Assembly (NCBI GenBank): GCA_016218805.1
Contig: JACRCW010000025.1
Span: 1,646-65,645 of the forward strand
Direction of reading: 5' to 3'
Length of the DNA: 64,000 nucleotides
DNA from: Deltaproteobacteria bacterium
GTDB lineage: Bacteria; Myxococcota; JACRCW01
Shown here: one piece after another, positions 4,306 to 50,269 of the stretch
Layout of the letters: each line of letters begins with the position of its first letter
How positions within the stretch are numbered: the stretch's first letter is position 1
Notes under the pieces: generated by a model
What the model saw: only the letters and a program-made list of their open reading frames with translations
What the model was told of the DNA's origin: nothing
Databases searched by the model: none
Program-made: the position numbers and the translations under genes

Positions 4306-4495
4306 GCCTGGGCGAGGACCGGCTGCGCCGGTTGGACGTCGTGGAGGAGGGCCGGGCCGGTGGCCGGCGGGGACGCCGGCCCCACCGTTGCTGGTTGCGG
4401 TGGAGCGGCTGCAGCAGGCAGTCATGGTGCGCGAGCGTGTCCCGAGAGCGGCGGCGCCGCACCGGTGCGCCGGGCCTCCCGCGCCTCACCGCGCT

Positions 4496-5398
4496 TCACG
4501 CCTCCGCGGGCCACAGCCACGCCGCGCCACGCACGCCGCTGGCGTCGCCGTGGGCGGCGGGTGCCAGGCGCGTGTCCACGCGGTCGCTGAACACGTACGC
4601 ACTCCAGCGCGCCGGGATATCCCGGTACAACTCATGGATGTTGGACAGCCCACCGCCCAGCACAATGACGTGCGGGTCCACCACGTTGATGACGCTGGCC
4701 AGCGAGCGCGCCAGCCGGTCCACGTAGCGGCCGTACGCGTCCCGCGCGGCGGCCACTCCCGCGTGGCACAGCGCCATGATCTCCTCCGCAGGCGCGTCCT
4801 GGCCGCCGTGGCGCGCGAAGTCATGCCGGAAGCCGGGGCCGGACAGAAACGTCTCAACGCACCCCGCCCTGCCGCAGTAGCAGGCGGGGCCCGGGCGCTC
4901 GTCGGCGGCGGGCCAGGGGAGCGGGTTGTGGCCCCATTCGCCCGCAATGGCGTTGGGCCCCTGCACCAACTGGCGTCCCACCACCAGGCCGCCGCCCACC
5001 CCCGTCCCCAGAATGGCGGCAAACACCACCCCCGCCCCGGCGCCCGCACCATCGGTGGCTTCGGACAGCGCAAAGCAGTCCGCGTCATTGGCCATCCGCA
5101 CCGGGCGCCGCAGCGCCTGCTGCAGGTCCTCCAGCAAGGGTTGGCCGTTGAGGCAGGTGGAGTTGCAGTTCTTCATCCGCCCCGTCGCCGGCGAGCGCGC
5201 GCCGGGCGTGCCGATGCCCACCGTGCACTGCGCGGCCACCTCCGCTTCCAGTTCCTCGACGATGGAGGCGATCTCGCGCAGCGTGGCGGGGTAGTCCCCC
5301 GCCGGCGTGGGAACGCGCCGCCGGGCCCGCACGCGGCCGCGGACGTCCATCACCACCGCTTCAATCTTGGTGCCCCCGAGATCCACTCCGATGCGCAT
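4496..5398 (-). CDS. ROK-family sugar kinase (N-acetylglucosamine kinase/fructokinase-like)
   Basis: MRIGVDLGGTKIE N-terminal ATPase motif; Cys-rich zinc motif CYCGRAGCVETFLSG typical of ROK. Confidence 0.8.
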   Translation of the reverse strand: MRIGVDLGGTKIEAVVMDVRGRVRARRRVPTPAGDYPATLREIASIVEELEAEVAAQCTVGIGTPGARSPATGRMKNCNSTCLNGQPLLEDLQQALRRPVRMANDADCFALSEATDGAGAGAGVVFAAILGTGVGGGLVVGRQLVQGPNAIAGEWGHNPLPWPAADERPGPACYCGRAGCVETFLSGPGFRHDFARHGGQDAPAEEIMALCHAGVAAARDAYGRYVDRLARSLASVINVVDPHVIVLGGGLSNIHELYRDIPARWSAYVFSDRVDTRLAPAAHGDASGVRGAAWLWPAEA

Positions 5399-5437
5399 GG
5401 GCTCCTCCGCGCACCCGCGGTTGTACCCCTTGGCCGC

Positions 5438-8257
5438 TCACGGCGCGCGCGGCACCACCGTGGCCGGGTCCGGCCCCACCACGGACAGGACGTACCGGCC
5501 GGTGTCCATGTACTTGCGCGCCAGTGCCCGCACATCCGCGGCGGTCACCGCCATGATGCGGTCCGCATACCGGGCGTGCTCGGCGTAGCCCAGGCCGTAC
5601 ACTTCGTTGAAGGACAGCGTGGCGGCCCGCGCACCCATCTTCTGCAGGCCAATCTCATGCGTACCGACCAGATAGCGCTGCGCGCGGTCCAGTTCCTTCT
5701 GGCTCACGGGCTCTTCGCAGACGCGGGTGAGCTCTGCCAGGATGCCGCTGAGCGCCTGGTCCACCTTGTCCGGGGACGTGCCCATGTAGACGGCCACGTA
5801 CCCGGGATCCACGCCCTCCAGCGAAAACGCCGTGATGGAGTACGCCAGGGACTGCTTGTCACGCAGCTCAATGAACAGGCGCCCGCCCTGCCCCGCCAGG
5901 ATCGTCGTGAGCACCTCCAGGCCGTAGCGGTCCGGGCTGCCCAGCGTGGCGCCGCGGAAGCCCAGCACCAGGTGCGTCTGCTCCTTGTCCTTCTTGAGCC
6001 GCGCAATCAGCGGCGCGGTGATCTCCGGCTCGGCGGGGAACACGCGCGGCGCGGGGAAGGGGCGGCTGCGCGGCAGGTCGTTGAACGAATCCTCCACCAG
6101 CTCGGCCACCCGCTCGGGGTCCACGTCCCCCACGACGGAAAGCACCATGCGGTCCGGGGTGAAGTGCTCGCGGTAGTAGCGCACCAGGTCGTCCCGCTTG
6201 AAGGCGGTCACCGTGTCACGCGTGCCCAGCGTGTCCATGCGGTAGGGGTGGTGCTTGTACAGCGTGCGGCCAAACTGCTCGAACGCCAGCCCGCTGGGGT
6301 TGTCCTCCTTGTTGCGGATCTCCTCCAACACCAGCTTGCGCTGCCTCTCCAGCTCGTCGGCAGCAAACGCGGGGCGGATGATGCTGTCCGCCATCAGGCT
6401 GAACCCGTGCTCAAAGTGCCGGGCCAGGAACTCACCGCGCACGCCAAAGCTGTTGCGGCCGGTGAAGCCCTCCAGCGTGCCCGCCGCGCTTTCCACCTCG
6501 TGCGCCACCTCCAGCGCGCTGGGTCCGCCTTCAATGCCCCGGGTGACCAGCTCCGCCATGAGGTTGTGGATGCCGTTGGTCTTGTCGTCCTCGTCGCGCA
6601 GGCCGCCCAGCCACACCGCGCGCATGCTGACCACGGGCACCTTGGGATCCGGCAGCACCAGCAGCGTGACGCCGCTCTGCAGCTGGCCGCGCCACACGCC
6701 CAGCTCGCCGCGGCTGAGCAGCATGCGCTGGCGGATCTTCCCCAGCTCGTCGGCGGCGGCGGCCACGGTCTCCTTGAGCTGCGCCTCGGCAACCGGCGGG
6801 GCCTGCTCGGGGAGCAGCGCCACCAGCGTGAGCCGGTCATCCATGAGGTACTTGGCCGCCACGCGCTTGACGTCCTGCGCGGTGACCGCGCGGATGCCCG
6901 CCATGTACTGGCGCTCAAAGTCCACGCTGCCGGCAACCGCCTCGTAGTAGCCCAGCTTGCGCGCCAGGCCCTGCACGGTCTCCTTCTGGTAGACCGTGTC
7001 AGACTCAATGATGGTCTTGGCCTTCTCCAGTTCCTCCGCGGTCACCTGCCCGTCACGCAGGCGGTAGGTCTCCACCAGCATGGCCTGCAGCGCCGCGTGC
7101 AGGTCACCGTGGTGCAGGGATGCGCCCACCATCAGCAGGCCCGGGTCCCGCGGCGTGTAGCTGTAGGCGTAGACGTCATTGACCAGCCGGCGGCCGTGTT
7201 TGACGCCGCGGGACAACCGGGACGAATCACCGTGGCCCAGCAGGATGGACAGCACGTCCAGCGCGTGGATGTCCGGGTTGAGCATGTCCGGGATGTGCCA
7301 GGCCAGGCTGAGGTGCGTCTCCTGGATCTTGTCCTTGCCCACGCGCACGCGCAGGCCCTGCTGGGTGGGTTCGGACTGGCGTGGCGGCAGCGGCTCGGAA
7401 GCGCCGGCAAACGCGCCAAAGTTGGCCTCCACCTTGCGCAGCGCCTCGGTGGTGTCAAAGTCACCGGTGATCACCAGCACCATGCGGTCCGGGCGGTAGT
7501 GGCGCTTGTAGAACCCGAGGATCTTCTCGCGCGTGAACGCGCGCACCGTCCTCTCGTAGCCGATCACCGGGCGGCGGTAGGTGTGCTTCTGGTAGGCGGT
7601 CTCAAAGGTCAGCTCGCTGATGACGCGCGCCGGCATGTCACGGCTGCGCTTGACCTCCTCAATGACCACCTCCAGTTCCTTGGCCAGTTCCGCCGGGTCA
7701 AAGCTGCTGTGCTGCACCGCGTCCGCCAGGACCTCCAGCCCCTGGTCAAAGAACCGGCTGGCCATGACCACGTGGTAGACGGTCTGGTCAAAGCTGGTCC
7801 ACGCGTTGATGTCGCCACCGGCCGCTTCCACCGCCTGGGCAATCTCACCCACGCCGCGCTTCTCGGTGCCCTTGAAGAGCATGTGCTCGTGGACGTGGGC
7901 CAGCCCCGCCTCGTCCTCGGACTCGTCGGCGGAGCCCACCTTGACCCAAACCTGGAAAGCCACCACGCGGGCCTGGTGGGACTCCTCCAGGATGACGGTG
8001 AGCCCGTTGGGCAACACGCGCCGGACGGGTCCTTTCTCCAGGACGGGGGCGGATTCGGACGGGCTTTGAGGGACCACGCGGTCTTCCTTTCCAGGGGCTT
8101 CCTGGGGTGGCTCCGGGGCCGGGGGCGGCGGAGCGGGCCGGGGCTGGGGTTCCGGGCGGGGGAGATGTTCCCGACGCGCCCCCTGTGTGCAAGCTGCCGA
8201 CGACACGGCGACAGCCAGGGCGACCCAGCAGGCCGCTGTTGGGACGCGGTGGCGCAT
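5438..8257 (-). CDS. M16-family zinc metallopeptidase (tandem insulinase-like halves), secreted/lipoprotein
   Basis: HVHEHMLFKGT (HxxEH inverted zinc motif); two M16 repeats; internal start MRHRVPTAACWVALAVAVSSAAC signal/lipobox at 8257. Confidence 0.8.
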   Translation of the reverse strand: MRHRVPTAACWVALAVAVSSAACTQGARREHLPRPEPQPRPAPPPPAPEPPQEAPGKEDRVVPQSPSESAPVLEKGPVRRVLPNGLTVILEESHQARVVAFQVWVKVGSADESEDEAGLAHVHEHMLFKGTEKRGVGEIAQAVEAAGGDINAWTSFDQTVYHVVMASRFFDQGLEVLADAVQHSSFDPAELAKELEVVIEEVKRSRDMPARVISELTFETAYQKHTYRRPVIGYERTVRAFTREKILGFYKRHYRPDRMVLVITGDFDTTEALRKVEANFGAFAGASEPLPPRQSEPTQQGLRVRVGKDKIQETHLSLAWHIPDMLNPDIHALDVLSILLGHGDSSRLSRGVKHGRRLVNDVYAYSYTPRDPGLLMVGASLHHGDLHAALQAMLVETYRLRDGQVTAEELEKAKTIIESDTVYQKETVQGLARKLGYYEAVAGSVDFERQYMAGIRAVTAQDVKRVAAKYLMDDRLTLVALLPEQAPPVAEAQLKETVAAAADELGKIRQRMLLSRGELGVWRGQLQSGVTLLVLPDPKVPVVSMRAVWLGGLRDEDDKTNGIHNLMAELVTRGIEGGPSALEVAHEVESAAGTLEGFTGRNSFGVRGEFLARHFEHGFSLMADSIIRPAFAADELERQRKLVLEEIRNKEDNPSGLAFEQFGRTLYKHHPYRMDTLGTRDTVTAFKRDDLVRYYREHFTPDRMVLSVVGDVDPERVAELVEDSFNDLPRSRPFPAPRVFPAEPEITAPLIARLKKDKEQTHLVLGFRGATLGSPDRYGLEVLTTILAGQGGRLFIELRDKQSLAYSITAFSLEGVDPGYVAVYMGTSPDKVDQALSGILAELTRVCEEPVSQKELDRAQRYLVGTHEIGLQKMGARAATLSFNEVYGLGYAEHARYADRIMAVTAADVRALARKYMDTGRYVLSVVGPDPATVVPRAP

Positions 8258-8382
8258 GGCGCGGCACCATGGGGCCGCACTCCTGCACGGCGCAAGCCCG
8301 CCCCGGGACGGGCGCCACCGCCGCCGATGGAGTATCAACCCGCGCAGGCAACGCACGGCGGCGGCCGGTGCGGGGAGTGACC

Positions 8383-8964
8383 ATGCGGAGTGCCGGGCTG
8401 GTGAAGGGATGGGCGGTGGCGCTGGCACTGGCGGCGGTGACGGTGGCCTGCCCCCGGCTGGGGCCCGGTGACCGCGGGGACCCGTGCCGCGAACACGCGG
8501 ACTGCGCGGATGACCTGGTGTGCGCGGATGACAAGTGCGGCACGCCGTGGGCGCGGCGCTGGCGGCTGACCGTGGTGGGCGCGCACATCAGCGCGCTGGA
8601 TCCCTCCGGCGGCGCCTGGGACAGCGATGACAGCGCGCCCGACCCGTACATGACGGTGACGGTGGACGGCGCCGAGGCGCTCCGCACGCAGGCCAAGCCC
8701 GACACGCTTACCCCGGCGTGGAACGAAGCGGTCACCGTGTTTCTGAACAACAACACCACGGTCCAGATCGCCCTGTGGGACGACGATTTCTTCTCCCTGT
8801 TCCCCGCCCCCATTGCCGCCACGCGGGATGCACCCGTGGCGCTGTTTGAGCTGCGGCAGGGCAGCACCACCGCGTACGCGGTGACCGGCACGCTGCCGGA
8901 CGGAGGCGGCGGCGGGATGCAGACCACCACGACAATCACCTACCAGTGGGACCTGGCGGAGTGA
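8383..8964 (+). CDS. C2-domain-containing lipoprotein
   Basis: Start MRSAGLVKGWAVALALAAVTVAC (lipobox); C2 signature LTVVGAHISALDPSGG..SDDSAPDPYMTVTVDG..TLTPAWNEAVTVF..IALWDDDFFS. Confidence 0.6.
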   Translation: MRSAGLVKGWAVALALAAVTVACPRLGPGDRGDPCREHADCADDLVCADDKCGTPWARRWRLTVVGAHISALDPSGGAWDSDDSAPDPYMTVTVDGAEALRTQAKPDTLTPAWNEAVTVFLNNNTTVQIALWDDDFFSLFPAPIAATRDAPVALFELRQGSTTAYAVTGTLPDGGGGGMQTTTTITYQWDLAE

Positions 8965-8977
8965 GCGGGGGTACCGC

Positions 8978-10324
8978 GTGAAGGTCTGGTCCGTTCCAGC
9001 GGCGGACATCCGCGGGCACAAGGACCGCGCCATGGCGCACCTGGCGCGCGGCCGCCCGGACCGCGCGCTGGGGGAGTACCTGGAGGTGCTGCGCGTCCGC
9101 CCGGATGACCTGGCGGTCCGGCAACGCGTGGGGGAGCTGTACCAGCGGGTGGGCCGCCATGCGGACGCCATCCGCGAATACCAGCACGTGGCCGGCCGCT
9201 ACGCGCATGACGGTCAGCCGCTCAAGGCCATTGCGGTGTGCAAGCTGATCCTGCGGCTGGACGCGGCGCACACCGAGACGCAGCGCGTGCTGGCCGGCCT
9301 GTACGGGAGCCCGCGCACGCCGGCGGGCGCGCTGCGCCTGCCCGCGTCCATGACGGCGGCCCTGCCGGATGCCGCGGCGCCCACGGCGTCCGCACCGACG
9401 GAGGAACTGGCCCTGGTGGTCCCCGCGGAGCCCGCGGACGGTCCCGGCGGTGCGTTTGACATTGACGTGGAGGCGCCGGCAGCGCCGTCCCAGCCGCGGA
9501 CGCTGGATGCCTCCCGCCTGCCCACCATTCCGTTGTTCCGGGACCTGGGGCCGCGGGCGTTTGCCATGTTGAGCGACCGGATCCACATGCGGCCGGTGGT
9601 GGCGGGGGAGGTGGTGGTCCGGGAGGGGGAGACCGGGCAGAGCATGTTTGCGGTGGTGCAGGGGAGCGTGGAGGTGCGGCGGGCGGGCCCGGACGGCGTG
9701 GTGCGCCCGGTGGCCCGCATGGGCGAGGGCGAGTTCTTTGGCGAGATGGCGCTGGTGGCGGACGTGCCGCGGCTGGCGACGGTGGTGGCGGCGGAGGACG
9801 GGCTGCTGTTTGAGTTCACGCGCGAGAAGATCCGCGAGCTGGCGGCGGAGCACCCCACGGTGGCGCGGGTGATTGAGCGCTTCCACCGGCAGCGGCTGCT
9901 GGAGAACCTGCTGCGCTCCTCGGCGCTGTTCCGCCCGCTGTCCGAGGGCGACCGCGAGCGCCTGGTGGCGGGCTTCCGCGTGCGCCGCGTGCCGCCGGGT
10001 ACCACGCTGCTGCGCGAGGGCGAGCCCGGCAACGGTTTCTACGTGGTGCTGCGCGGGCGGTGCCGCGTGACCCACGGCCGGCGCGAGCTCCCCGGCCTGC
10101 GCGAGGGCGACGTGTTTGGCGAGATCTCGCTGCTGGCCGGCGTGCCGGCGACGGCCACCGTGGTGACGGCGGAAGACTGCGTGCTGATGCGGCTGGCGCC
10201 GGCGGCGTTTGCGGACTTGGTGGCGGAGCAGGCGCACGTGCGGGACGCGGTGGCTGCGCTGGCGCGCGAGCGGCTGGCGCGCACGCACCCCGGCGCGGTG
10301 GCGCGCGCGGAGGGACGCGTCTGA
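8978..10324 (+). CDS. TPR repeat protein with two cyclic-nucleotide-binding (cNMP) domains
   Basis: N-terminal TPR-like helices; two CAP-family cNMP domains (GEFFGEMALV...; GDVFGEISLLAG...). Confidence 0.8.
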   Translation: MKVWSVPAADIRGHKDRAMAHLARGRPDRALGEYLEVLRVRPDDLAVRQRVGELYQRVGRHADAIREYQHVAGRYAHDGQPLKAIAVCKLILRLDAAHTETQRVLAGLYGSPRTPAGALRLPASMTAALPDAAAPTASAPTEELALVVPAEPADGPGGAFDIDVEAPAAPSQPRTLDASRLPTIPLFRDLGPRAFAMLSDRIHMRPVVAGEVVVREGETGQSMFAVVQGSVEVRRAGPDGVVRPVARMGEGEFFGEMALVADVPRLATVVAAEDGLLFEFTREKIRELAAEHPTVARVIERFHRQRLLENLLRSSALFRPLSEGDRERLVAGFRVRRVPPGTTLLREGEPGNGFYVVLRGRCRVTHGRRELPGLREGDVFGEISLLAGVPATATVVTAEDCVLMRLAPAAFADLVAEQAHVRDAVAALARERLARTHPGAVARAEGRV

Positions 10325-10333
10325 CCGGCCCCG

Positions 10334-13300
10334 TCAGGCCTTGGGGGGCGGGGGCTTGGGGGCCGCGGCCACGGCGGCCACGCCGCCCTTGAGGCGCTGC
10401 AACTGCTCCAGCGCCTTCTGGTAGTCCTCGGTCAGCTTCTTGCGCTCGTCCTCGCGCTGCTTATAGCGGGCCACCAGCTCATTGTACTTCTTACGCAGCT
10501 CCGCGGCCTCCGCCCCGCCCACGGTCTTCTTGGCCATCTCCTCCTGCAGGCGCTTGTTCTTGGTGGAGGCGTCCTGGAGGGTGGCGGTGATCATCTGGAG
10601 CTCGCCCTCCAGCTCCTCAATGCGCTCGTCGCGGTCCTTGAGGTTCTTCTCCATCTGCACGCTGGCGGTGCCGCCGCCGTGCGCCACCTGCTGCTCCAGT
10701 GCGGTGAGGCGCGTCTGCAGTGCGTTCTTCTCCACCGTGGAGGCGGCGCGCTCCCGGACGCGCGCGGTGCGCTCGCCGTTGGCATCCGTCTCGGCGGTGG
10801 TGGCACGGGCCTCCGCGCGCTCCAGGCGCCGCGTCAACTCCTCCACCTTGCCCTGCAGGCCGCGCTTCTCGTCCTCCAGCGCGCGGGTCACGCCCTGCTT
10901 CTCGCGCTCGCGGGCGGTCTTGTCGCGCGCGGCGGCTTCCTGCAGCTCCGCCAGGGAGCGCTCCTTGACGCGCATCTCCCCGCGCAGCGCGTCCAGCTCC
11001 ACCTTGTGGCGCGCCTCGGCCGCCGCCAGGTCCTGCTGCATCTGCTCGCGCTGCTTCTCCAGCTTCTCCAGGTTCTTGCGCACGGCCAGGCGGTCGCGTT
11101 CGCTCTTGTCGCGCTTGTCCTTCTCCTCGGCCAGTGACTTCTGGATGGTCTCCAGCCGCCCCTCGGAGTCCACGCGGGCGCGCGCCTCGGCGTCGCGCTC
11201 GGCGCGCATGGTCATCAGTTCACCGCCCAGGGACTGCGCCTGGACCTCGTGGCCCTCGGACTGCAGGCGCATGTCCTCCAGCATGCTGCGGGCCTCGGAC
11301 AGCTGCTCGGACAGCTCGGTGATCTTCTGGCGGGCGCGCTCCTCCAGCTTGGCGCGCGCCGCGTCCAGCTCGCCCTTCTCCATCCCAAACTGCTCGCGCA
11401 GGCTCTCCAGTTCATGCTCCACCTGGCCGCCGCGCGCCTGGGAGGCGGACAGCTCCGCGGTGAGGCGGGTCTCATTGTCCGTCTTGCGGCGCAGCTGGGC
11501 CTGCTGGTCAGCCACCTGGCCCTTGAGCTGGTCGCGCTCGGCGGTGGTCTCGTCCAGGGAACCGCGCGTCTGGCGCAGGGCGCGCTCGGTCTCGCCCAGC
11601 TTGGCGCGGGTGGCGCTGAGGTCCTTCTCCGCCTGGCGCAGGTGGTCGGTGGTGGTGGACAGCTCCGTCTCCAGGGACAGGATCCGGGACTGCTGCTCGC
11701 TGTCACGCCGGTCCGCCTGGGCCTTCTGTTCGGCGGCGGCCTTGCGCTCCTTGGCCAGCGTGCCTTCCAGCTTCTCGCGCGTCTGCTGGTGGCCGCGCTG
11801 CTCCTCGGCCAGGGTGGCTTCCACGCTGCCCAGCCGCTCGGAGAGGTTGTCGCGCTCGGCGCGGGAGGCATCCAGCGCGGCGGTGAGGCGCGCCACGTCG
11901 GACTCCAGCGTCTGGATGCGCAGGTCGCGCTCCCGCAGCGTGGTCTCCAGACCCAGGATCTGTTCGCGCAGCTGGCGTTCGGTCTCGGAGCGTTCGGTGG
12001 CATCGCGCTCGGCCTGGTCGCGCGTCTCGGCCAGGCGCTGCTCCAGGTTCTGGATGCGTTCACGCGCGCGCTCCACGTCCGTCTCCAGGCCCTGGATGCG
12101 CGCGGCGCGGGCCTGCAGCTCACCGTTCTGCTCCTCAATATGCGCGTTGCGCTCGGCCAGCAGGCGTTCCAGGTCGGTGACCTTGCCCTGCTCCTCCAGC
12201 AGCTGTGCCTCCAGCTCGGAGCCACGGCTTTCCAACCGGGCAATCTGGTCGGCGCGGGCGGCCAGCTCGGCCAGGTGCGCGTCGCGCTCGTTCTCCAGCT
12301 CGGTGCGCTCGCGGGTGAGCCCGGCCACCTTCTCCTGCAGGTCCTTCTTGTCGCGCGCGGCGGCCTTGTCCCCGTCCTCCTTGACGCGCGTGAGGTCCGC
12401 CAGTGCGGTCTGGACCTTGATGCGTTCCTCGGTCTCGCTCGTGAGCAGGGCCTGGACGCCTTCGCGCGTGCCAATCTCCTCGTCCAGCTGGGTGCGCAGC
12501 CCCTCCTTCTCCTTCTGCAGCTGCAACTCGCGGCCGTGCGCCTCCTCGGCCGCCTGGTCGGCGGACTTGCGGGCCTGGTCAATCCGCTGCTCCAGCGTGC
12601 GGATGTCGGCCACGCGTTCGGCCGCCACGGCCTCCATCTCCTCCTGCTCACGCGCTTTCTGCGCCTCCAGGTCGCGGTACCGCTCCTCGGCGGCCTGCCG
12701 GTCGCGCTCGGCGGCGTCACGCAGGTTCTCACCGTCCTGCAGCAGCGCGTCGCGTTCGCGCTCCATGCGTTGGACGCGCTCCTCCAGGATGGCGCCCTCG
12801 GCGGTGGCGGAGGCCAGCCGTTCGTCCAGCGCGGACAGGCGGACCTGGGTGTCCCGCAGCTCGTCCCGGACGGTGTCCAGGTCACGCGTGCGGGCATCCA
12901 GCGCCTCCTCCATCGCCTGGACCTCGCGCTCGCGCGCGGCCCACAGCTCGCGGGCGCGGCCCAGCTCGGCCTCGCGGCGGCGCAGGCTCTCGCGCAGGAA
13001 CTGCTGGCGGGCCTCAGGGCCGGCGTTGGGCGGCAGGGAACCGGTTCCCTCGTCCGGGCGGCCCTGGCGCAGCAGTTCATCCAGGGACCCGCCGCGGGCG
13101 GAGCGGCCCAGCCGGCTGCCGGCGCGCGGAATGGGCGGCGGGCCGCCCGCGGAAGGCGGCGGCGTCTGGGGCGGCCGGGAGAGGGGCGGGAGGGAATCCA
13201 CGCTGCCGGAGGACACCGGCGCCGCGTTTCCAAACGCCTGGTCCAGGCTGGCGTCCAGGCCCGCCTCGCTGGCATCCGCGCTCCCGTCCTGGCCGCGCTC

Positions 13301-13741
13301 CTGCACGGCCAGCACGTCGTCATCACCGCCGGACCGCGGGGGGGCCGGCGCGCCGTTGCCGCCCTGGAACGCACCGGGCGCCAGTTGCTGCATGCGCGCC
13401 AGCAGGTCCGCCAGCTCCACGGGCTTGTGCAGGTAGGCGTCCGCGCGCGTGGCCAGCTTCTGGTGCTGGGCAAACGCCTCAGGGGTGGCCTGGCCGGAGG
13501 TGAGGATCAGCGGAATGCCCTGCATCTCCGCGTTGCGGCGCAGCCGGTTGCACAGCGAAAACCCGCTCCCCCGCGCCAGCTCCACGTTGACCAGCACCAG
13601 GTCGGGCCGCTCGTTCTTGATGAGCTCCACGGCGGCATCCCCGTCACCAATGGTGAGGGCCCGCAGCCCGTGGGGCTGCACCAGGTGGTTGACCGATTCG
13701 GCAAAGGACGCATCCGCGTCGACGATCACCAGTTTTGCCAT
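10334..13741 (-). CDS. AglZ/FrzS-like protein: N-terminal pseudo-receiver domain plus ~1000-aa coiled coil
   Basis: Start MAKLVIVDAD at 13741 (CAT at 13739-41 checked); receiver fold lacks phospho-Asp (PDLVLVNVEL instead of LD); remainder is heptad-rich E/R/A/L coiled coil; Pro-rich C-terminus. Confidence 0.75.
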   Translation of the reverse strand: MAKLVIVDADASFAESVNHLVQPHGLRALTIGDGDAAVELIKNERPDLVLVNVELARGSGFSLCNRLRRNAEMQGIPLILTSGQATPEAFAQHQKLATRADAYLHKPVELADLLARMQQLAPGAFQGGNGAPAPPRSGGDDDVLAVQERGQDGSADASEAGLDASLDQAFGNAAPVSSGSVDSLPPLSRPPQTPPPSAGGPPPIPRAGSRLGRSARGGSLDELLRQGRPDEGTGSLPPNAGPEARQQFLRESLRRREAELGRARELWAAREREVQAMEEALDARTRDLDTVRDELRDTQVRLSALDERLASATAEGAILEERVQRMERERDALLQDGENLRDAAERDRQAAEERYRDLEAQKAREQEEMEAVAAERVADIRTLEQRIDQARKSADQAAEEAHGRELQLQKEKEGLRTQLDEEIGTREGVQALLTSETEERIKVQTALADLTRVKEDGDKAAARDKKDLQEKVAGLTRERTELENERDAHLAELAARADQIARLESRGSELEAQLLEEQGKVTDLERLLAERNAHIEEQNGELQARAARIQGLETDVERARERIQNLEQRLAETRDQAERDATERSETERQLREQILGLETTLRERDLRIQTLESDVARLTAALDASRAERDNLSERLGSVEATLAEEQRGHQQTREKLEGTLAKERKAAAEQKAQADRRDSEQQSRILSLETELSTTTDHLRQAEKDLSATRAKLGETERALRQTRGSLDETTAERDQLKGQVADQQAQLRRKTDNETRLTAELSASQARGGQVEHELESLREQFGMEKGELDAARAKLEERARQKITELSEQLSEARSMLEDMRLQSEGHEVQAQSLGGELMTMRAERDAEARARVDSEGRLETIQKSLAEEKDKRDKSERDRLAVRKNLEKLEKQREQMQQDLAAAEARHKVELDALRGEMRVKERSLAELQEAAARDKTAREREKQGVTRALEDEKRGLQGKVEELTRRLERAEARATTAETDANGERTARVRERAASTVEKNALQTRLTALEQQVAHGGGTASVQMEKNLKDRDERIEELEGELQMITATLQDASTKNKRLQEEMAKKTVGGAEAAELRKKYNELVARYKQREDERKKLTEDYQKALEQLQRLKGGVAAVAAAPKPPPPKA

Positions 13742-13787
13742 GGGGCCCTGCTCCCGGGATGGGAAGGATGGGGAATTGCGGCGCGCG

Positions 13788-15917
13788 TCAGGGGCAGTTC
13801 TGCAGCTCCGGCCCCTGCAGGATCTGCTTGATGCGGTCCACCATGGGGCTGCCGGGGTTGAGCTCCACGTATTTCTTGTAGTGCGTCTTGGCCTCGCAGT
13901 ACTTGGCCTGCCGCGCGTAGGCCACGCCCAGCAGCTTGTGGGCATCCGTCAGGGACGGGTCCAGTTTGAGGGCCGTCTTCCCCTTCTGCACCGCATCATC
14001 AAAGTTGCCCAGCAGGATGGCGCGGTTGCCGTCCTCCAGCAGCTTCTTGGCCTCGGCGGCCTTGCCGCCGCCGGCGGGCTGGGCATTGTCGGCGGGCGTG
14101 GGGGACGGGCGCGGCGTGGGCTGCGGGGTGGGCCGGGCGGGCTGGGCGGAGGACCGGGCCTTGAGCCGGAGCGCCTTGTCCAGGAGTTTCTGCGCGTCCT
14201 TGTTGCCTTTGTCCAGGTCCAGCACGTCCTCGGAGTAGGTCTTGGCGCTCTGCCAGTCGCCCTGCTGCAGCGCGGCCTCGCCGTCCTTGAGCCACTTCTT
14301 GATGATCTGCGCGCGGGTATTGCGCGCCTCCACCAGCGCGCGGTCACGGGCGCGGGTGCCCTCAATGACCTCCAGCAGCTGGCGGTAGCACCGCACGGGG
14401 TCCGTCCCGCACAGGCCCATGGCGTCCTCCAGCTGGCGCTGCGCGCGGATCTCGCGGTCCACCTGCTCCAGGCACTCGCGCGCCTTGGGCACCAGGTCCT
14501 GCACGCGTTCGCAGATCTCCTTGGCTTCCACAAAGTTGCCCTTCCGGAGCGCGTCCAGTGCTGCCTTGTGCTGGCGCTGCGCCTCCGCCACCGGGTCCTC
14601 CCTGACCGGTGCCGGCATGGGCGTGGGAGCGGGCGTGGGGGCCGGGTCCCGCGGCGGGTTGCGCGGGGGCTTGCGGTCATCCGGCGGCTTGTGGTCCTCC
14701 GGGGGCGCCGCGGAGGCGGGCGCCGGCGGGGTGACGGCGCCGCCGGAGGAGGTTGCGGGCTTGGGGTCCTTGCCGCCGGGCCCGCCGGAAAACGCAAAAC
14801 CGATGACGATGAGCAGCACCACCACCCCGGCGCCGGCGCCGGCGACGATCTTGACGGGGAAGCCGCCGGCCTTCACGCGGCTGGTCATCACCGTCGTGGA
14901 GCCGCCGCCCATGCCGCCATCCGCGTCGGTGTCCTCGCGCTTGAGGCGCTCTATTTCTGAGGCGGACAGCTGGAAGCCCTCGCCGGGCTCCACAAAGCGC
15001 AGCTTGACGTGTCCCAGCTCAATGATGTCGCCCTTGCGCAGGTCAATCCGCTTGTACTCCTCCCCGTTGACCAGCACGCCGTTGGCGGAGTTGAGGTCCA
15101 CCACCGTGTAGCGGGCGCCGTCCCGGACAATCTTGGCGTGGTTGCGGCTGACGCTGCGGTGGTCCAACACCACGTCATTGTCATCCGTGCGGCCAATGAC
15201 GTTCTCCGGCTTGGTGAGGGCGTAGCTGTTGCCGGCCAGGCCGGTGGACACGGCCACCACGCGCGCGGAGGCCTCCTCGGCGGATGCCGTCAGGTCCGAC
15301 GTACGGACGATGGCGGTGGGCTCGGAACGGCGGGTGGGCTCCGGGTCCGGCGTGGGTTCGCCGGCCGCGGGCAGCGGCATGCGCGCGGTGGCCTCCGGAG
15401 GCGCGGAGGCGTGCAGCGCCGCGGCGGGCGCCGGCATTTCCCGCTCCGTGCGGGTCTGGTCCGGGTCCAGCCCGCCGGGGGGCGGCGCCACCATCTGGCT
15501 GGTGACCTCGTCAGGCGCGGCCCCGGGCAGCGTCCCTTCAGCCAGCGCCGTGGCCATGGACACCCGCTGCGTGGACTCCTCCGGGTGGCCACCCGCCCCA
15601 GCCAGCCCCGGCGAATCCGTCCCCTCCTGCTGGATGACCAGGTGGTAGTCGCCGATCTCGATGAGATCGCCTTCGTTGATGGAGACGCGGGTGTTGACCT
15701 GGATGCGGTCACCATTGACGCGGATGCCGTTGTAGCTGTCCAGGTCCTCAATGAAGACGTCCGCGCTGGCCTTGGAGATGCGCGCGTGGTGGCGGCTGAC
15801 GTTCCGCTCCGTCAGACGGATGTTGTTGCCTTCCTTGCGGCCAATGGTGATTTCGTCTCGCATGATCGGGACGACGGTGGTCTTCCCCTCGTCATCCTCG
15901 ATGATGAGCTTGTACAT
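13788..15917 (-). CDS. tandem FHA-domain protein with TM segment, Pro-rich linker and C-terminal TPR
   Basis: Two FHA cores (GR..GNNIRL..VSRHHARI; IGRTDDNDVVL..VSRNHAKI..SANGVLVNG); hydrophobic AGAGAGVVVLLIVIGFAF; PxxP-rich region; TPR C-terminus. Confidence 0.8.
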   Translation of the reverse strand: MYKLIIEDDEGKTTVVPIMRDEITIGRKEGNNIRLTERNVSRHHARISKASADVFIEDLDSYNGIRVNGDRIQVNTRVSINEGDLIEIGDYHLVIQQEGTDSPGLAGAGGHPEESTQRVSMATALAEGTLPGAAPDEVTSQMVAPPPGGLDPDQTRTEREMPAPAAALHASAPPEATARMPLPAAGEPTPDPEPTRRSEPTAIVRTSDLTASAEEASARVVAVSTGLAGNSYALTKPENVIGRTDDNDVVLDHRSVSRNHAKIVRDGARYTVVDLNSANGVLVNGEEYKRIDLRKGDIIELGHVKLRFVEPGEGFQLSASEIERLKREDTDADGGMGGGSTTVMTSRVKAGGFPVKIVAGAGAGVVVLLIVIGFAFSGGPGGKDPKPATSSGGAVTPPAPASAAPPEDHKPPDDRKPPRNPPRDPAPTPAPTPMPAPVREDPVAEAQRQHKAALDALRKGNFVEAKEICERVQDLVPKARECLEQVDREIRAQRQLEDAMGLCGTDPVRCYRQLLEVIEGTRARDRALVEARNTRAQIIKKWLKDGEAALQQGDWQSAKTYSEDVLDLDKGNKDAQKLLDKALRLKARSSAQPARPTPQPTPRPSPTPADNAQPAGGGKAAEAKKLLEDGNRAILLGNFDDAVQKGKTALKLDPSLTDAHKLLGVAYARQAKYCEAKTHYKKYVELNPGSPMVDRIKQILQGPELQNCP

Positions 15918-16010
15918 GGCGCGAGAACGCTCCGCTGGGACCGAGAACGATTTGGGTAACACAAAGTCGTGAGCGGCCTCAAGGTGGACGCCGTGCTCAG
16001 CGCGCCTCCA

Positions 16011-17366
16011 TCAGGGGCCACCGGAGGCGGAGGTGGGACGGCGCGCGGCGGCGAAGATCCTCCAGGCCTTGAGCGCATCCAGGGCGGCGCGGACCTGCGG
16101 GTCCTTGGGGCCGGCGGCCTGGTCCCCGGGCTTGGCCTGCGGGTCCGTGGTGTTGCGCAGGTGGCGCTTGAGGTCCTTCTCCCGGAAGGTGCCGTCGGCG
16201 GCGGGAGCGGGGGCGGGGGCGGCTGGGGGCGCGTCACCCTCAGGGAGCGCGGGGTCCAGGCGGACGTCCGGGACAATGCCGCGCTCCTGGATGGAGCGGC
16301 CCTTGGGGGTGAAGTAGCGGGCAATGGTGAGCTTCAGGCCGCTGCCGTCCTCCAGCTCCATGATGGACTGCACGCTGCCCTTGCCAAACGTGGGCACCCC
16401 CATCACCACAGCGCGCCCGTGGTCCTGCAGTGCGCCGGCGACGATCTCAGAGGCGGACGCGGTCCCCTCGTTGACCAGCACCACGATGGGATAGTCCGGC
16501 TGCGTGTCCTTGGGATGGGCCGTGTGGCGGGCCAGCACCTTGCGGCCACGCCCCTCCGTGGTGACGATGACGCCGTCCCACAGGAACTCGTCGGCCACGG
16601 CCACCGCCTCGTCCAGCAGACCGCCGGGGTCATTGCGCAGGTCCAGCACCAGGCCGGCCAGCCCGCGGTCCCGGGGCCCGGCGGGCGCGGCGCACGACCC
16701 GCCCAGTTGGAACAGCGACTGGTGGAGTTCCCTGGCCACGCGCTCCTGGAAGCTCTTGATGCGCACGTGGGCGAACCCGGGCTCCAGGCAGTGGCCCTCC
16801 ACGGCCACCAGCTTCACCTTCTCGCGCACCAGCGCCACGTCGCGGGGCTCGCCCCAGGAGGCGCGGCGGATCTTGAGCACCACCTTGGTGCCCGCCAGGC
16901 CGCGCAGCACGCGCCAGGCATCCTGCAGGTGGCCGGACAGGGCCTGCCCGTCCACGGCGAGGATCTGGTCACCCGCCAGCAGACCCGCGCGCGCGCCCGG
17001 CGCCCCTTCCATGGGCGCAACAATGACAATGACGCCGTCCTTCTCTTCAATCTCCAGGCCCAGCCCGCCGAACTCGCCCGCGGTGTCTTCCTGCAGCTTC
17101 TTGTATTCCTCCGCGGGCATGAAGACGGAATGCGGGTCCAGGGTCTCCATCATGCCGCGCACCGCGCCGTACACCAGCTGGTCCTCAGGCACCGGCTCCA
17201 CGTAGCTCTGCTGAATGTGGGTCATCACCTGCGTGAAGATGCGGAGCTTCCGGTAGGTGGCATCCGGGTCCCTGGCGGCCACCTGCGCCCCGGCGGCCAA
17301 CACCGCTCCGCACACCAATGCCCCACCCACCCACCGCCAGCTCCGCCGGTCCCTGCGTGTCACCAT
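16011..17366 (-). CDS. ctp: carboxyl-terminal processing protease (S41 peptidase with PDZ domain)
   Basis: GLGLEIEEKDGVIVIV..GDQILAVDG (PDZ), LVLDLRNDPGG and TASASEIVAGALQD (S41 catalytic region), signal peptide. Confidence 0.85.
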   Translation of the reverse strand: MVTRRDRRSWRWVGGALVCGAVLAAGAQVAARDPDATYRKLRIFTQVMTHIQQSYVEPVPEDQLVYGAVRGMMETLDPHSVFMPAEEYKKLQEDTAGEFGGLGLEIEEKDGVIVIVAPMEGAPGARAGLLAGDQILAVDGQALSGHLQDAWRVLRGLAGTKVVLKIRRASWGEPRDVALVREKVKLVAVEGHCLEPGFAHVRIKSFQERVARELHQSLFQLGGSCAAPAGPRDRGLAGLVLDLRNDPGGLLDEAVAVADEFLWDGVIVTTEGRGRKVLARHTAHPKDTQPDYPIVVLVNEGTASASEIVAGALQDHGRAVVMGVPTFGKGSVQSIMELEDGSGLKLTIARYFTPKGRSIQERGIVPDVRLDPALPEGDAPPAAPAPAPAADGTFREKDLKRHLRNTTDPQAKPGDQAAGPKDPQVRAALDALKAWRIFAAARRPTSASGGP

Positions 17367-17377
17367 GGCCGCCTAGC

Positions 17378-18499
17378 CTAGCCGCGCTCCCCGCCGGCCC
17401 CCAACAACGCGTCCAGGCATCCGGCTGCGCCCGGGGACAGCCAGCGCACGCGCACCTGCAGCGCCACCACCGGGGGCTCCCGCGCGTCCAGCGGCCAGCC
17501 GGCCGCGTCCTTCTCCGTCACCACGGCGGCCTCCGCGCCCACCGCGCGCACCCGGGCCTCCAGCTGAGCGACATCGCCGGCGGTCCAACCGGCATGGTCC
17601 GGGCGGGCCCAGGTGGCGGCGATCACTGCCCCCAGCGCGCCCACCGTCCGGGCCACCGCATCCGGGCGCGCCACGGCCGCAGCCACCAGCACGCGCCGCC
17701 CGCGCAACCAGGCGGGGTCCCCGGGGGTCTCCGGGCCGGACAGGCGCACCAGCCGCGCCGGCACCAGCGCCGCCCGCAGCACCCGCGCGGGGCGGACGCC
17801 GTCGGGAACCGGTTGATCGGTGGCTGCGGACGCGTCACCCAGCAGCACCACGGCGTCCACGTCCGCCAGGACGCTGGCGGGGTCCCGCAGCGGGCCGGCG
17901 GGCAGCAGCCGCCCGTTGCCAAACGGCCCGGGCACGCGCAGCACGGCCACGCGCGCGTCCTGGTGCACGCGGTGGTGCTGGAGCGCGTCATCCAGCAGGA
18001 CCACCGCAGCGCCGGCTTCCCGCGCCGCGCGGTCCGCCAGCATGGCCCGGTCCCGTCCCGCGTAGACGCTGACGCCGGGCAGCGCGCGCGCCAGCTGCGC
18101 GGGTTCGTCCCCCGCGTGCGCCGCGTCCAGAAGCACCGACTGGCTGTTGGATACACGGGCGCCGCCGGGCGGGAGGGCCACCCCGTAGCCGCGGGACACC
18201 ACCGCCACGGCCAACCCGCGCGCGCGCGCGTGTTCCGCCAGCGCCAGCACCACCGGCGTCTTCCCCGCCCCACCGGTCACCACGTTGCCCACGCCCACCA
18301 CCCGCGCCGGGCAGCGGTGCGCGTGCAGCAAGCCGGCGCCGTACGCCCCGCGGTGCACCGTCCGGGCAATCCACCAGGCCGCGGACAGCGGCGCCAGCGC
18401 GGCGCGCGCCACCCGCAGTGACGGTGAAGGCGCGTCGTCGTACCACAGGCGCAGCGGCGTGACCGGCGGCATGCGCGTCAGTAGGGGTCCGGGCCGCAC
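17378..18499 (-). CDS. lpxK: tetraacyldisaccharide 4'-kinase
   Basis: VGNVVTGGAGKTP P-loop at LpxK position, VVSRGYG; alternative start at M10 (18472) would remove 22-nt overlap with upstream gene. Confidence 0.85.
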   Translation of the reverse strand: MRPGPLLTRMPPVTPLRLWYDDAPSPSLRVARAALAPLSAAWWIARTVHRGAYGAGLLHAHRCPARVVGVGNVVTGGAGKTPVVLALAEHARARGLAVAVVSRGYGVALPPGGARVSNSQSVLLDAAHAGDEPAQLARALPGVSVYAGRDRAMLADRAAREAGAAVVLLDDALQHHRVHQDARVAVLRVPGPFGNGRLLPAGPLRDPASVLADVDAVVLLGDASAATDQPVPDGVRPARVLRAALVPARLVRLSGPETPGDPAWLRGRRVLVAAAVARPDAVARTVGALGAVIAATWARPDHAGWTAGDVAQLEARVRAVGAEAAVVTEKDAAGWPLDAREPPVVALQVRVRWLSPGAAGCLDALLGAGGERG

Positions 18500-19479
18500 A
18501 GGCCGCGCCGGCCCGCGTCAGGATCAGCGCCCCAGCACAGCAGTCCCGCGGTGCAGGCCCCGCCGTCACACGGGTCCGCGCACACCACCCCGCCATCAAA
18601 CGTGGCCGTGCCAAAGCGCGCGCAGCGCCCGGATGCGCACTGGTCCGCGCGGTCACACGCCGTGCCCACCGGCCGCGTGTCCACCAGCGGCGTGCAGGCG
18701 CGCGCCCCGCCCTGCAGCGCCAGGCAGGCGCCTGCGGGCGGGCACTCCTGGTCCGGCCCGCACGGCCCCACGCACACCGCGCCGCCGTCCACGGCGAAGC
18801 AGATGGCGGACACGCACTCGCGGGGGTCACCGCAGGCGCCCAGGTCCGGCACCGGCACCACGCAGGCGCTCCCGTAGGCGTGGGTGGTGTCACAGATGGC
18901 GCCGGCGTCCCCGCAGCCGGCTTCGCAGCCGCCGGCGCACTGGTACCGCCCGCCCCAGGGGACGCAGCGGCCTCCCGCGCACTCCCGGCCGGACGAGCAC
19001 GCGTTCCCGGCGGGCAGGACATCCGTAGGCGGCATGCAATAGGGCACGCCGGCCAGCGCGGGCTCCACCGCGCAGCGCAGCGTGGTGTCCGTGCAGGAGC
19101 CGTTGGGAAGGCAAGGCTCCACGCAGATCCCGGAGCCGGCGGATTCCACGCACGCGCCGCTGGCGCACTCCCGCCCGCCGCGGCAGGCGGAGCCGGCGGG
19201 GAGCGTGGCCACCAGCGGCAGGCACAGGCGCACGCCGTCCACCGTGGTGCACGAATGCGCCGCCGCGCAGGTTCCATCCGCCGCGCACGGCAGGCGGCAG
19301 GCGGTCCGTTCACCGGGGACGTGCGCGCAGAAGCCGGAGGCGCACTCGGCGTTGCGTTCGCAGTCCCCGTCAATGGGGGTCCCGCCGCCGTCCGCGCTGC
19401 CACCGTCAGCGCCGGACCCACCGGGCTTGCAGGCCACACTCAGGAGCAGGACGAGGAAACAGGCGAGCGCGCGGTTCAT
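18478..19479 (-). CDS. cysteine-rich repeat lipoprotein (repeated C-x5-C-x-S-G-x-C modules)
   Basis: Start MNRALACFLVLLLSVAC (lipobox) at 19479; repeats ACRGGRECASGACV / ACSSGRECAGGRCV / ACDRADQCASGRCA; longer listed ORF start rejected because it overlaps the tRNA. Confidence 0.55.
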   Translation of the reverse strand: MNRALACFLVLLLSVACKPGGSGADGGSADGGGTPIDGDCERNAECASGFCAHVPGERTACRLPCAADGTCAAAHSCTTVDGVRLCLPLVATLPAGSACRGGRECASGACVESAGSGICVEPCLPNGSCTDTTLRCAVEPALAGVPYCMPPTDVLPAGNACSSGRECAGGRCVPWGGRYQCAGGCEAGCGDAGAICDTTHAYGSACVVPVPDLGACGDPRECVSAICFAVDGGAVCVGPCGPDQECPPAGACLALQGGARACTPLVDTRPVGTACDRADQCASGRCARFGTATFDGGVVCADPCDGGACTAGLLCWGADPDAGRRGLCGPDPY

Positions 19480-33346: not shown

Positions 33347-34039
33347 GTGTCCGTTGTTGCAGGCGTGCTGGTGGTGGCCATGACGGCGGGCGGACTGCCC
33401 GGCGGCACGGTGCGGCACGTGTCCCGCATGACCGGGGCGCTGTTGGAGGTGGTGACCGCGTCACCCGGCGCGCTGGTGCGCGTGGACGGTGAAGTGCGCG
33501 GCCGCACACCGGTGCGGGTGGCCGGCCTGGCGCCGGGAGTGCACCGCGTGGAACTCAAGGGCGGCGGCGTGGATTCCGCCCGGTCGGTGGACATGGATGA
33601 CGGCATGCTGGTCCGTGTGGAGGCGGACGCCACCGGCGTGCGCGTGCGCAGCGGGCCACTGGCGGACACCAGCCCGGCCGCAGCGGGTTCCGCTTCGGAC
33701 GCGCCGGCGGCGTGGCGGCCGGACGTGTCGTCGTTGCGCAGCCTGCTGGCGCAGCCCTGGGTGTATGCGGCGGCGGCCTGCACCGGGTTGGCGCTGCTGG
33801 GCGCCGGCTTGCTGTGGACCTCCACGCCGGACCGGTTCCCCGTGCTGCGCCGCCTGCCGCTCCACGTGGAGCCCTGGCAATACACCGCGGCGCGTTGGGT
33901 TTCCGTGGGCGCCGTTGCCACGGGGCTGGTGCTCACCGCGGCGCTGTGGGTGGTCCCGGCGCTGCCCAGCCTGGCGGCCCTGCTCCACCGTGACCGCGCA
34001 GCGGCGGCGGCGCCGCCGCCGGACGCCACGGCCGGCTGA
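33347..34039 (+). CDS. PEGA-domain membrane protein
   Basis: PEGA motif ALLEVVTASPGALVRVDGEVRGRTPVRVAGLAPGVHRVEL; C-terminal TM helices; GTG start preceded by GGAGGTG. Confidence 0.6.
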   Translation: MSVVAGVLVVAMTAGGLPGGTVRHVSRMTGALLEVVTASPGALVRVDGEVRGRTPVRVAGLAPGVHRVELKGGGVDSARSVDMDDGMLVRVEADATGVRVRSGPLADTSPAAAGSASDAPAAWRPDVSSLRSLLAQPWVYAAAACTGLALLGAGLLWTSTPDRFPVLRRLPLHVEPWQYTAARWVSVGAVATGLVLTAALWVVPALPSLAALLHRDRAAAAAPPPDATAG

Positions 34040-39029: not shown

Positions 39030-39059
39030 GCCTGATTGGCAGACCCGATCGGGGAAGTC

Positions 39060-42124: not shown

Positions 42125-42371
42125 GAAAGGCCTCCTTTCAGCGTGTCGGTGTCAGTGCGGGTCCTTCCGACTGCAGGCAACCGACCGAAAGGACCGCAAC
42201 ACAACACAGCCCGCGAATGGTCATCATGATCCCTCCGCGTGAGGATCCTCGGTGGCCCGCGGTTGGGGTTCAAGCGAACCGACTGCGCCGCCAACGCGTG
42301 CGTCGCCGCGGGTGCATCGCCGTGCGTTCAGCCCTTGTGCCCGCCCCTTCCCGAGTCCTAGCTTGCTCGCC

Positions 42372-50135: not shown

Positions 50136-50269
50136 CCGGCAACAGGATCTTGCCCGTGGTTTTCGCTCGAAAAACGGGCAGGTGCGGCTGACCACTGACG
50201 AACTTTGTCACTGCCTACAGTCACGCAGTGACGCGTGCCGTCACCCAGGCACCGGGGTATGGGGGGCGG

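Follow-up and report, generated by a model that had tools for sequence, protein, structure and literature searches.

A FrzS-like pseudo-receiver coiled-coil protein of uncultured Myxococcota as a probable docking scaffold, with neighbouring genes that form separate units

Introduction

In Myxococcus, FrzS and AglZ link the two motility engines to the polarity switch MglA and, to our knowledge, nearly everything that is known about these proteins comes from one suborder. A 64,000-nucleotide stretch of DNA from a Deltaproteobacteria bacterium (Myxococcota; GenBank assembly GCA_016218805.1, contig JACRCW010000025.1, positions 1,646 to 65,645), hereafter called the window, contains a gene for a long protein that starts with a receiver domain and continues as a coiled coil, and that we refer to as the scaffold. 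Its gene lies between a pair of genes for a C2-domain protein and a TPR protein with two cyclic nucleotide (cNMP)-binding domains, and a gene for a protein with tandem FHA domains. This arrangement raises two questions: to which branch of the FrzS/AglZ family does the scaffold belong, and do the four genes form one module responsive to Ser/Thr phosphorylation and to cyclic nucleotides, as an earlier note on this DNA had proposed? The evidence presented here makes it probable that the scaffold belongs to the FrzS/AglZ family, where it is of the FrzS-like, ancestral type and represents a subfamily of its own, that it has a role as a docking scaffold, and that its neighbours are separate from it.

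Results

Gene call and domain layout of the scaffold

Because the G+C content of the window is 72%, raw lists of open reading frames (ORFs) are full of spurious frames, and genes were picked out by the G+C content of third codon positions (GC3) in each frame. A public Logan contig, SRR12113407_2154, has the identical sequence, and its independent gene call gives the same products of 1135, 709 and 430 aa. The true length of the scaffold is therefore 1135 aa; the 1136 aa given in the earlier note were one codon off. A Shine-Dalgarno-like GGGAG is located 9 nt upstream of the scaffold ATG. The scaffold gene and its parts are:

10334-13741, minus strand: scaffold, a FrzS/AglZ-family pseudo-receiver coiled-coil protein of 1135 aa (GC3 0.91; Pfam Response_reg, E 1.4e-14)
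13367-13741, minus strand: pseudo-receiver domain, aa 1-125 (alignments to CheY and FrzS; AlphaFold2 fold)
13016-13366, minus strand: disordered linker rich in Pro, Gly and Ser, aa 126-242 (composition; pLDDT below 50)
10367-13015, minus strand: coiled-coil rod of ~880 aa, aa 243-1125, with six short breaks (periodicity; AlphaFold2 helices)

The pseudo-receiver domain

Among all solved structures, the best match of scaffold residues 1-125 is the receiver of Myxococcus xanthus FrzS (PDB 2GKG, E 6e-19), with which they share the motif 'FAQH.KL...AD.Y..KP'; the next unrelated family is represented by MtrA (E 1.7e-12). AlphaFold2 predicts a (beta-alpha)5 receiver fold at a predicted local distance difference test score (pLDDT) of about 80. 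When aligned to CheY, the phospho-acceptor D57 corresponds to N51, within the stretch 'LVLVNVEL', and D13 corresponds to A9, and the phospho-acceptor position is N or S in all members of the subfamily (alignment A2). As judged from the replacement of Asp57 by Asn and of Asp13 by Ala, the scaffold receiver is not phosphorylatable at the canonical site. A canonical two-component response regulator was considered and is ruled out, its acidic pocket being incomplete. The lack of a phospho-acceptor Asp had already been pointed out in the earlier note from the sequence 'VNVEL'. That note had also named the finding that would speak against it, namely an intact Asp pocket together with relatives that are all SMC-like; we looked for this combination and found neither the pocket nor such a restriction of the relatives.

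The equivalents of CheY D12, T87, Y106 and K109 are present in the scaffold receiver. Also conserved are the equivalents of FrzS His92, Tyr102 and the Lys (H93, Y103 and K106), and H93 and Y103 are invariant across all aligned relatives (alignments A1 and A3). It has been shown that His92 and Tyr102 are needed for FrzS function in vivo (PMC1974792, PMC9811614).

Linker and coiled-coil rod

The linker, about 115 aa in length, consists of 15% Gly and 15% Pro and contains two threonines, Thr193 and Thr233. In the AlphaFold2 model, residues 127-242 are disordered (pLDDT below 50) and residues 243-1126 form helices with six short breaks; no proline is present across residues 251-1100. The dominant hydrophobic period of the rod, determined in local 84-aa windows, is 3.5-3.55 residues, corresponding to a heptad, and its z-scores versus shuffles are 3-8.5 over about residues 250-840 and weaker beyond. 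The Fourier power of the whole rod at exactly 3.5 residues is not above that of shuffles, because of phase shifts.

A rod of this length might suggest that the scaffold is a generic SMC-like protein. One homologue, P0002, has been named 'chromosome segregation ATPase' by JGI, and NCBIfam SMC models match the rod with an E-value of 1e-17. However, this match reaches 63 bits against a cut-off of 567 and covers the coiled coil only, we found neither a Walker A motif nor head or hinge domains in the scaffold, and its N-terminus is a FrzS-type receiver. The 'SMC' label of the homologue is a coiled-coil artefact, because there is no Walker A motif, and we assign a practically negligible probability to the SMC-like alternative.

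The junction between linker and rod (window 13016-13100, aa ~215-275; columns 260-330 of alignment A2) holds motifs that are invariant in the subfamily, 'SLDELL..GR.DE' and 'AGPEA[KR]..FLRE.LRRRE...ARELW..R.RE', and a weaker version, 'REFLDLRE.LN.K.KE', is present in the more distant proteins P0009-P0012. The junction motifs are a candidate partner-binding or trigger site.

Relatives of the scaffold

When the full-length scaffold was used as query against a collection of 5.8 billion sequences, 14 protein matches were obtained. Eight of these, with lengths of 1113-1153 aa, can be aligned over their entire length, two of them at 60-62% identity and six at 25-29%. All eight have in common the receiver motifs SLCNR, ATPEAFAQHQ and ADAY.HKP, the motif 'SLDELL..GR.DE', the rod-start motif 'AGPEA[KR]..FLRE.LRRRE...ARELW' and, close to the C-terminus, 'KYNE.V'. 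A scan that covered one genome per bacterial species revealed 12 scaffold loci. All except one are located in metagenome-assembled genomes (MAGs) of uncultured Myxococcota or 'Deltaproteobacteria' (11/12); the twelfth and weakest locus (L013; 28% identity, E 4e-6) belongs to a Nocardioides MAG. Sequence comparison thus indicates that the scaffold belongs to a distinct subfamily of ~1110-1150 aa in uncultured Myxococcota.

Searches with parts of the protein were less specific. The N-terminal 309 aa gave 4 irrelevant matches, in a search dominated by words of the Pro-rich linker, and a hidden Markov model profile of the receiver placed multi-receiver proteins, whose scores add up, at the top of the ranking, with single-domain family members at about 170-180 bits. 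A profile search that included FrzS yielded 740 matches at E-values of at most 1e-18. The 120 listed matches are short pieces from the N-terminus (123-211 aa); those few that have a name derive from Polyangiaceae, Polyangia or Myxococcales MAGs, and no protein named AglZ or FrzS is present among these 120.

FrzS-like or AglZ-like type

According to a previous study, a functional phosphorylation site is missing from all FrzS/AglZ paralogues, the duplication leading to AglZ is placed within the Cystobacterineae, and the single copy of other myxobacteria is FrzS-like (Guzzo et al. 2015, PMC4546325). We took the beta4-alpha5 segments of 26 FrzS/AglZ proteins from the S7 figure of that study and scored them pairwise against the segment of the scaffold, which reads 'EMQGIPLILTSGQATPEAFAQHQKLATRADAYLHKP'. 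The top scores were obtained with the single copies of S. cellulosum (1099 aa), Anaeromyxobacter (858 and 527 aa) and P. pacifica (737 aa); M. xanthus FrzS was intermediate, and AglZ proper gave the lowest scores. The AglZ-type signature, 'WGQNLKVLLLSS...GLAQHRQTP.AADGYL.[IF]P', is absent from the scaffold, and the K109 equivalent, which is lost in AglZ proper ('AIP' or 'AMP'), is kept ('HKP').

These markers bear directly on the possibility that the scaffold is an AglZ orthologue that marks the Agl-Glt gliding (focal adhesion) complexes. The rod of about 880 aa is nearer in length to that of AglZ (1076 aa) than to that of M. xanthus FrzS (235 aa), and the argument from architecture made in the earlier note applies here as well. 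However, long rods are also found in FrzS-like single copies, such as the 1099-aa protein of S. cellulosum, and the AglZ duplication has been placed within the Cystobacterineae (PMC4546325). In addition to the lowest beta4-alpha5 score and the absence of both AglZ hallmarks, the 'WGQNLKVLLLSS' signature and the loss of K109, the NCBIfam models of GltG and GltJ match domain-level pieces only, with 60 and 17 bits versus cut-offs of 650 and 450. We therefore consider AglZ orthology extremely unlikely. The AglZ/FrzS architecture proposed in the earlier note stands as far as the FrzS/AglZ-type receiver and the coiled coil are concerned, but the beta4-alpha5 markers place the scaffold closer to the FrzS-like type than to AglZ proper.

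The neighbouring genes

The genes on both sides of the scaffold gene are:

5438-8257, minus strand: M16 peptidase (GC3 frame analysis)
8383-8964, plus strand: C2-domain protein, small, secreted or a lipoprotein, 193 aa, with a Cys-rich stretch (Pfam C2, E 3.7e-9; GC3 0.90)
9032 (or GTG 8978)-10324, plus strand: cytoplasmic protein with TPR and two cNMP-binding domains (Pfam cNMP_binding, E 2e-43, in two stretches; TPR)
13788-15917, minus strand: protein of 709 aa (MBI5494065.1) with tandem FHA domains, a single transmembrane (TM) segment (aa 357-376) and a periplasmic helical/TPR part (Pfam FHA, TPR_2)
16011-17366, minus strand: S41 (CtpA-type) C-terminal processing protease with PDZ domain (Pfam Peptidase_S41, E 4e-51; PDZ_6; CtpB_N-like)
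17378-18499, minus strand: LpxK, lipid A 4'-kinase (Pfam LpxK, E 1.6e-73; syntenic with S41 in L001, L016 and L019)

The four domain calls of the earlier note were right: Pfam confirms each of them, with E-values of 4e-9 to 2e-43. The scaffold gene is located directly downstream of the FHA/TPR gene in the same direction, and the two are separated by 46 nt. Considering this short gap, the good Shine-Dalgarno sequence and the lack of a terminator (a terminator and promoter scan of 8000-18700 gave no convincing candidate), the scaffold gene is probably co-transcribed with the tandem-FHA/TPR gene upstream. On its other side, the scaffold gene converges with the cNMP gene; their stop codons (10324-10334) lie 9 bp apart without a terminator-like hairpin, and the two transcripts may overlap. 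Further out, a 1365-codon plus-strand ORF that starts with ATG (4283-8380; G+C content of the first codon position, 0.90) is an antisense artefact of the M16 gene; ATG 8257 is the probable start codon of the latter, which would encode a lipoprotein-type signal (...SSAAC) and is divergent from the C2 gene.

The scaffold locus has two close relatives only, L001 (a Myxococcota MAG) and L016, in which the order MutS2 ... LpxK - S41 - FHA/TPR - scaffold is conserved. Neither has a C2 or a cNMP gene beside the scaffold gene. Both contain at that position a convergent gene for a sigma-54 activator (L001 13394-14902 and L016 11364-12299, both on the minus strand; 37% identical to each other). The activator of L001 has an N-terminal FHA domain and is a different FHA neighbour from that of the window. 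At the distant loci with gene calls, L014, L015, L017 and P0008, the scaffold gene is followed in all four cases by a gene for an AAA_11/AAA_12 helicase. This Upf1-like helicase gene lies 10-170 nt downstream in the half of the subfamily at 25-29% identity (L014 11440-13473, L015 7254-9287, L017 11389-13362), and upstream of the distant scaffold genes there is a FliH-like gene or a gene for a protein with ASH/HYDIN-type Ig repeats. The only FHA-like match at the distant loci is a weak one, about 5 kb upstream in L007.

The question of whether the C2, TPR-cNMP, scaffold and tandem-FHA genes constitute one motility or polarity module, responsive to Ser/Thr phosphorylation and cyclic nucleotides, can be addressed with these data. 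All four architectures are real and adjacent, the FHA domains keep the residues that bind phosphothreonine (pThr), FrzS-type receivers dock TPRs and both neighbours carry TPRs, the cNMP protein shows similarity, in its N-terminal TPR, to the first part of the SgmX model (E 1.5e-12; 46.7 bits versus a cut-off of 1800), and a Ser/Thr kinase gene is present at 2905-4305. Ser/Thr kinases are very abundant in myxobacteria, however, and one such gene at a distance of 10 kb therefore carries no weight. The C2/cNMP pair is not co-transcribed with the scaffold gene, because the two are convergent, and its position is taken by the sigma-54 activator genes in L001 and L016. The TPR part of the FHA protein is periplasmic and therefore out of reach of a cytoplasmic receiver, and the phosphate-binding Arg is missing from the second cNMP domain. 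Moreover, the distant members of the scaffold subfamily have no adjacent FHA, C2 or cNMP genes, and the 51 other loci of the FHA family, 22 of which extend at least 500 nt downstream, are without a FrzS-like gene. A single four-gene module is accordingly very unlikely, and the pThr- and cNMP-responsive unit of the earlier note is not supported: the C2 and TPR-cNMP genes are not conserved beside the scaffold gene, and the conserved partner of the FHA gene is S41. The neighbouring genes are units separate from the scaffold, and the apparent module is a product of the local gene order.

The S41 protease and tandem-FHA pair

In the 709-aa protein, Pfam detects FHA in two stretches (E 5e-36) and TPR_2 (E 1e-10). 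Both FHA domains, a domain type specific for pThr, keep the binding residues GR...SR.H...NG, and all six cysteines are located C-terminal to the TM segment. A metagenome scan with this protein gave 52 loci, 51 of which (L019-L069) encode tandem-FHA relatives, L070 matching the C-terminal TPR only. The family members are about 590 aa long, have an extremely conserved N-terminus, 'MYKLIIEDDEGKTT...', and share the layout FHA-FHA-TM-periplasmic helical/TPR, with cysteines in the periplasmic part only (alignment A5). They are named 'FHA domain-containing protein' or 'hypothetical' at most, and they come mostly from Polyangia, Myxococcales or 'Deltaproteobacteria' MAGs. Orthology of the 709-aa protein with GltG or GltJ was considered and rejected, as the matches are far below the model cut-offs.

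In 34 of the 38 loci with enough upstream sequence, the gene immediately before the FHA gene, in the same orientation, encodes an S41 protease; in the remaining four, the S41 gene is upstream on the opposite strand (two loci) or absent (two loci). What follows downstream of the FHA gene varies and includes genes for OmpA-domain, Tim44-like, DUF4331 and TPR proteins. No FrzS-like receiver gene lies close to the tandem-FHA gene at any of the 51 loci; in 22 of them, the sequence extends 500 nt or more past the tandem-FHA gene. From this gene order we conclude that the conserved unit appears to be the S41/tandem-FHA pair, widespread in Myxococcota. Targeted literature searches retrieved no description of this pair, and it is unnamed in NCBIfam.

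It may then be asked whether the scaffold is functionally coupled to this pair, for instance by FHA binding to a pThr of the scaffold, with the rod positioning periplasmic proteolysis or cell-wall remodelling. In three genomes, the lpxK, S41, FHA/TPR and scaffold genes are co-directional, with a gap of 46-52 nt and no terminator; the scaffolds are 62/60% and the FHA proteins 50/49% identical to those of the window, and the scaffold linker contains Thr193 and Thr233. However, the three genomes are one lineage that also shares synteny of mutS2 and lpxK, both housekeeping genes, so that the conserved order may be a matter of mere descent, and the association is seen in neither family elsewhere. 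In this clade, the only conserved Ser/Thr position of the linker is occupied by Ser, for which reason we rejected the idea of a conserved pThr site there. Functional coupling is thus possible, but on the whole unlikely. In our reading, lpxK, S41 and the tandem-FHA/TM/TPR gene form an envelope unit, to which the scaffold gene has been appended downstream in this clade.

The C2 and TPR-cNMP proteins

The C2 protein matches Pfam C2 with 37 bits (cut-off 22) and has a signal peptide that ends in ...AAVTVAC. Its gene is the first of the C2/TPR-cNMP pair and is divergent from the M16 peptidase gene. The cNMP protein is 430 aa long from ATG 9032, the start chosen in the Logan contig, or 448 aa from GTG 8978, and among solved structures it is most similar to the PKA regulatory subunit 3OF1 (E 1e-30). 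In its first cNMP domain, the phosphate-binding cassette, 'VPRLATV', is intact and has the Arg (compare 'PRAATV' of PKA); the cassette of the second domain, 'VPATATV', has an Ala in place of this key residue. The second domain may therefore be unable to bind nucleotide, which would probably leave a single functional site.

The TPR part (window 9032-9300, plus strand) matches positions 13-100 of the NCBIfam SgmX model much better than it matches generic TPR models. This likeness is suggestive, and we regard it as a lead and not as evidence, because FrzS binds TPR9-11 of SgmX and not its N-terminus.

The rest of the window

The rest of the window contains mostly housekeeping genes, including those for HemF, a ROK kinase, MutS2, UvrC, GreA, FabD/FabG, an E1 dehydrogenase and enzymes of the pentose-phosphate pathway. 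Two Ser/Thr kinases, one with C-terminal PEGA domains, a TPR-PEGA protein and a small PEGA protein are encoded on the plus strand (2905-4305, 39036-41234, 42252-43835 and 33347-34039), and adjoining these are an FGE-sulfatase-like gene (43832-44974) and a Wzy_C gene (44953-46722). Genes for a PilD-type prepilin peptidase (A24; 50228-51196, plus strand) and a receiver-GGDEF protein (58417-59514, minus strand) are also present. The PilD-type peptidase implies that the organism has type IV pili or a type II secretion system.

Discussion

Proposed function of the scaffold

In M. xanthus, the coiled coil of FrzS is sufficient for polar localisation, and the sole function of its pseudo-receiver is to dock TPR9-11 of SgmX via alpha3-beta4-alpha4, for which H92, G88 and A97-H98-A99 are required; the same authors predicted that AglZ recruits a TPR protein as well (PMC9811614). 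By analogy, the scaffold is most likely a phosphorylation-independent docking and localisation scaffold. Its rod would dimerise or oligomerise and, by homology with FrzS, set the position in the cell, at the poles or on a cytoskeletal platform, and its pseudo-receiver would dock a partner without phosphorylation, plausibly a TPR protein as in the FrzS-SgmX pair. The partner is probably not M. xanthus SgmX, because G88 is replaced by A and AHA97-99 by T-R-A in the scaffold; it would be another protein or one that has co-evolved with the scaffold. Taken together, it is plausible that the scaffold uses the FrzS-like docking principle.

Several points weigh against this view and against the family placement. 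The FrzS-versus-AglZ assignment rests on pairwise scores over about 50 aligned residues and on the FrzS receiver. The AlphaFold2 model was built from only 9 sequences, has a mean pLDDT of 63 and represents a monomer, in which pairing of the coiled coil is not visible. It should also be noted that mglA/mglB, frz, sgmX, agl/glt and pil machinery genes are absent from the 64-kb window, except for that of the PilD-type prepilin peptidase, so that the link of the scaffold with motility is purely by homology. Finally, D12, T87 and K109 are kept in the scaffold receiver, in contrast to FrzS, and it might act as a non-canonical, signal-dependent switch.

The docking-scaffold interpretation reveals no new signalling system. 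The S41/tandem-FHA pair is the more novel lead; it points to a possible connection of Ser/Thr phosphorylation with proteolysis in the periplasm. The pair might constitute a trans-envelope signalling device in which cytoplasmic pThr controls a periplasmic protease via an inner-membrane TPR adaptor, and in which the appended FrzS-type polar scaffold would bring proteolysis of the envelope under control of polarity; we regard this extended scheme as rather doubtful.

Comparison with known systems

The S41/tandem-FHA pair resembles Prc-NlpI and CtpA-LbcA in that a periplasmic S41 protease and a periplasmic TPR or helical-repeat protein are encoded by adjacent genes and are presumed to cooperate. 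NlpI and LbcA, however, are outer-membrane lipoproteins without a cytoplasmic part (PMC6050968, PMC8764530), whereas the repeat protein of the window has a single TM segment as its inner-membrane anchor and two cytoplasmic FHA domains, and its cooperation with S41 is putative. By analogy, the tandem-FHA protein may be an inner-membrane, pThr-regulated counterpart of the NlpI and LbcA adaptors.

AglZ (M. xanthus MXAN_2991), a FrzS paralogue of the same superfamily, is similar to the scaffold in having a pseudo-receiver and a very long coiled coil. It differs in showing the lowest beta4-alpha5 similarity and in the K109 equivalent, which the scaffold retains, and no Agl-Glt genes are present in the 64-kb window.

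Closer to the scaffold are the FrzS-like single copies of Sorangiineae/Nannocystineae and Anaeromyxobacter (Guzzo et al. 2015), which have the K109 equivalent and comparably long coiled coils and which, like the hosts of the scaffold, belong to the non-Cystobacterineae Myxococcota. Their proxies P0009 and P0010 nevertheless show only 35-43% receiver identity to the scaffold, and the subfamily of the window is set apart by the invariant motifs 'ATPEAFAQHQ', 'SLCNR', 'SLDELL' and 'AGPEAK..FLRE' and by a fixed length of about 1130 aa.

FrzS itself (M. xanthus MXAN_4149; PDB 2GKG/2I6F) shares with the scaffold a receiver without phospho-acceptor Asp, at 32% identity over the domain, the conserved alpha4 His, switch Tyr and Lys, and a layout in which a flexible middle region leads into the coiled coil at the C-terminus. 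The differences are considerable. The coiled coil of FrzS comprises 235 aa, compared with about 880 aa in the scaffold; the D57 position is Ala in FrzS and Asn in the scaffold; and the scaffold keeps D12, T87 and a 3-residue beta4-alpha4 segment that FrzS does not have. The middle region of the scaffold is a disordered Pro/Gly linker with conserved motifs of its own, and its neighbours are envelope and housekeeping genes, with no frz operon nearby. The residues at the SgmX-contact positions (A and T-R-A) and the absence of frz operon adjacency rule out a strict FrzS orthologue. With the output-face His and Tyr kept and the SgmX contacts changed, the subfamily provides natural variants in which the docking by pseudo-receivers and the evolution of their partner specificity can be studied.

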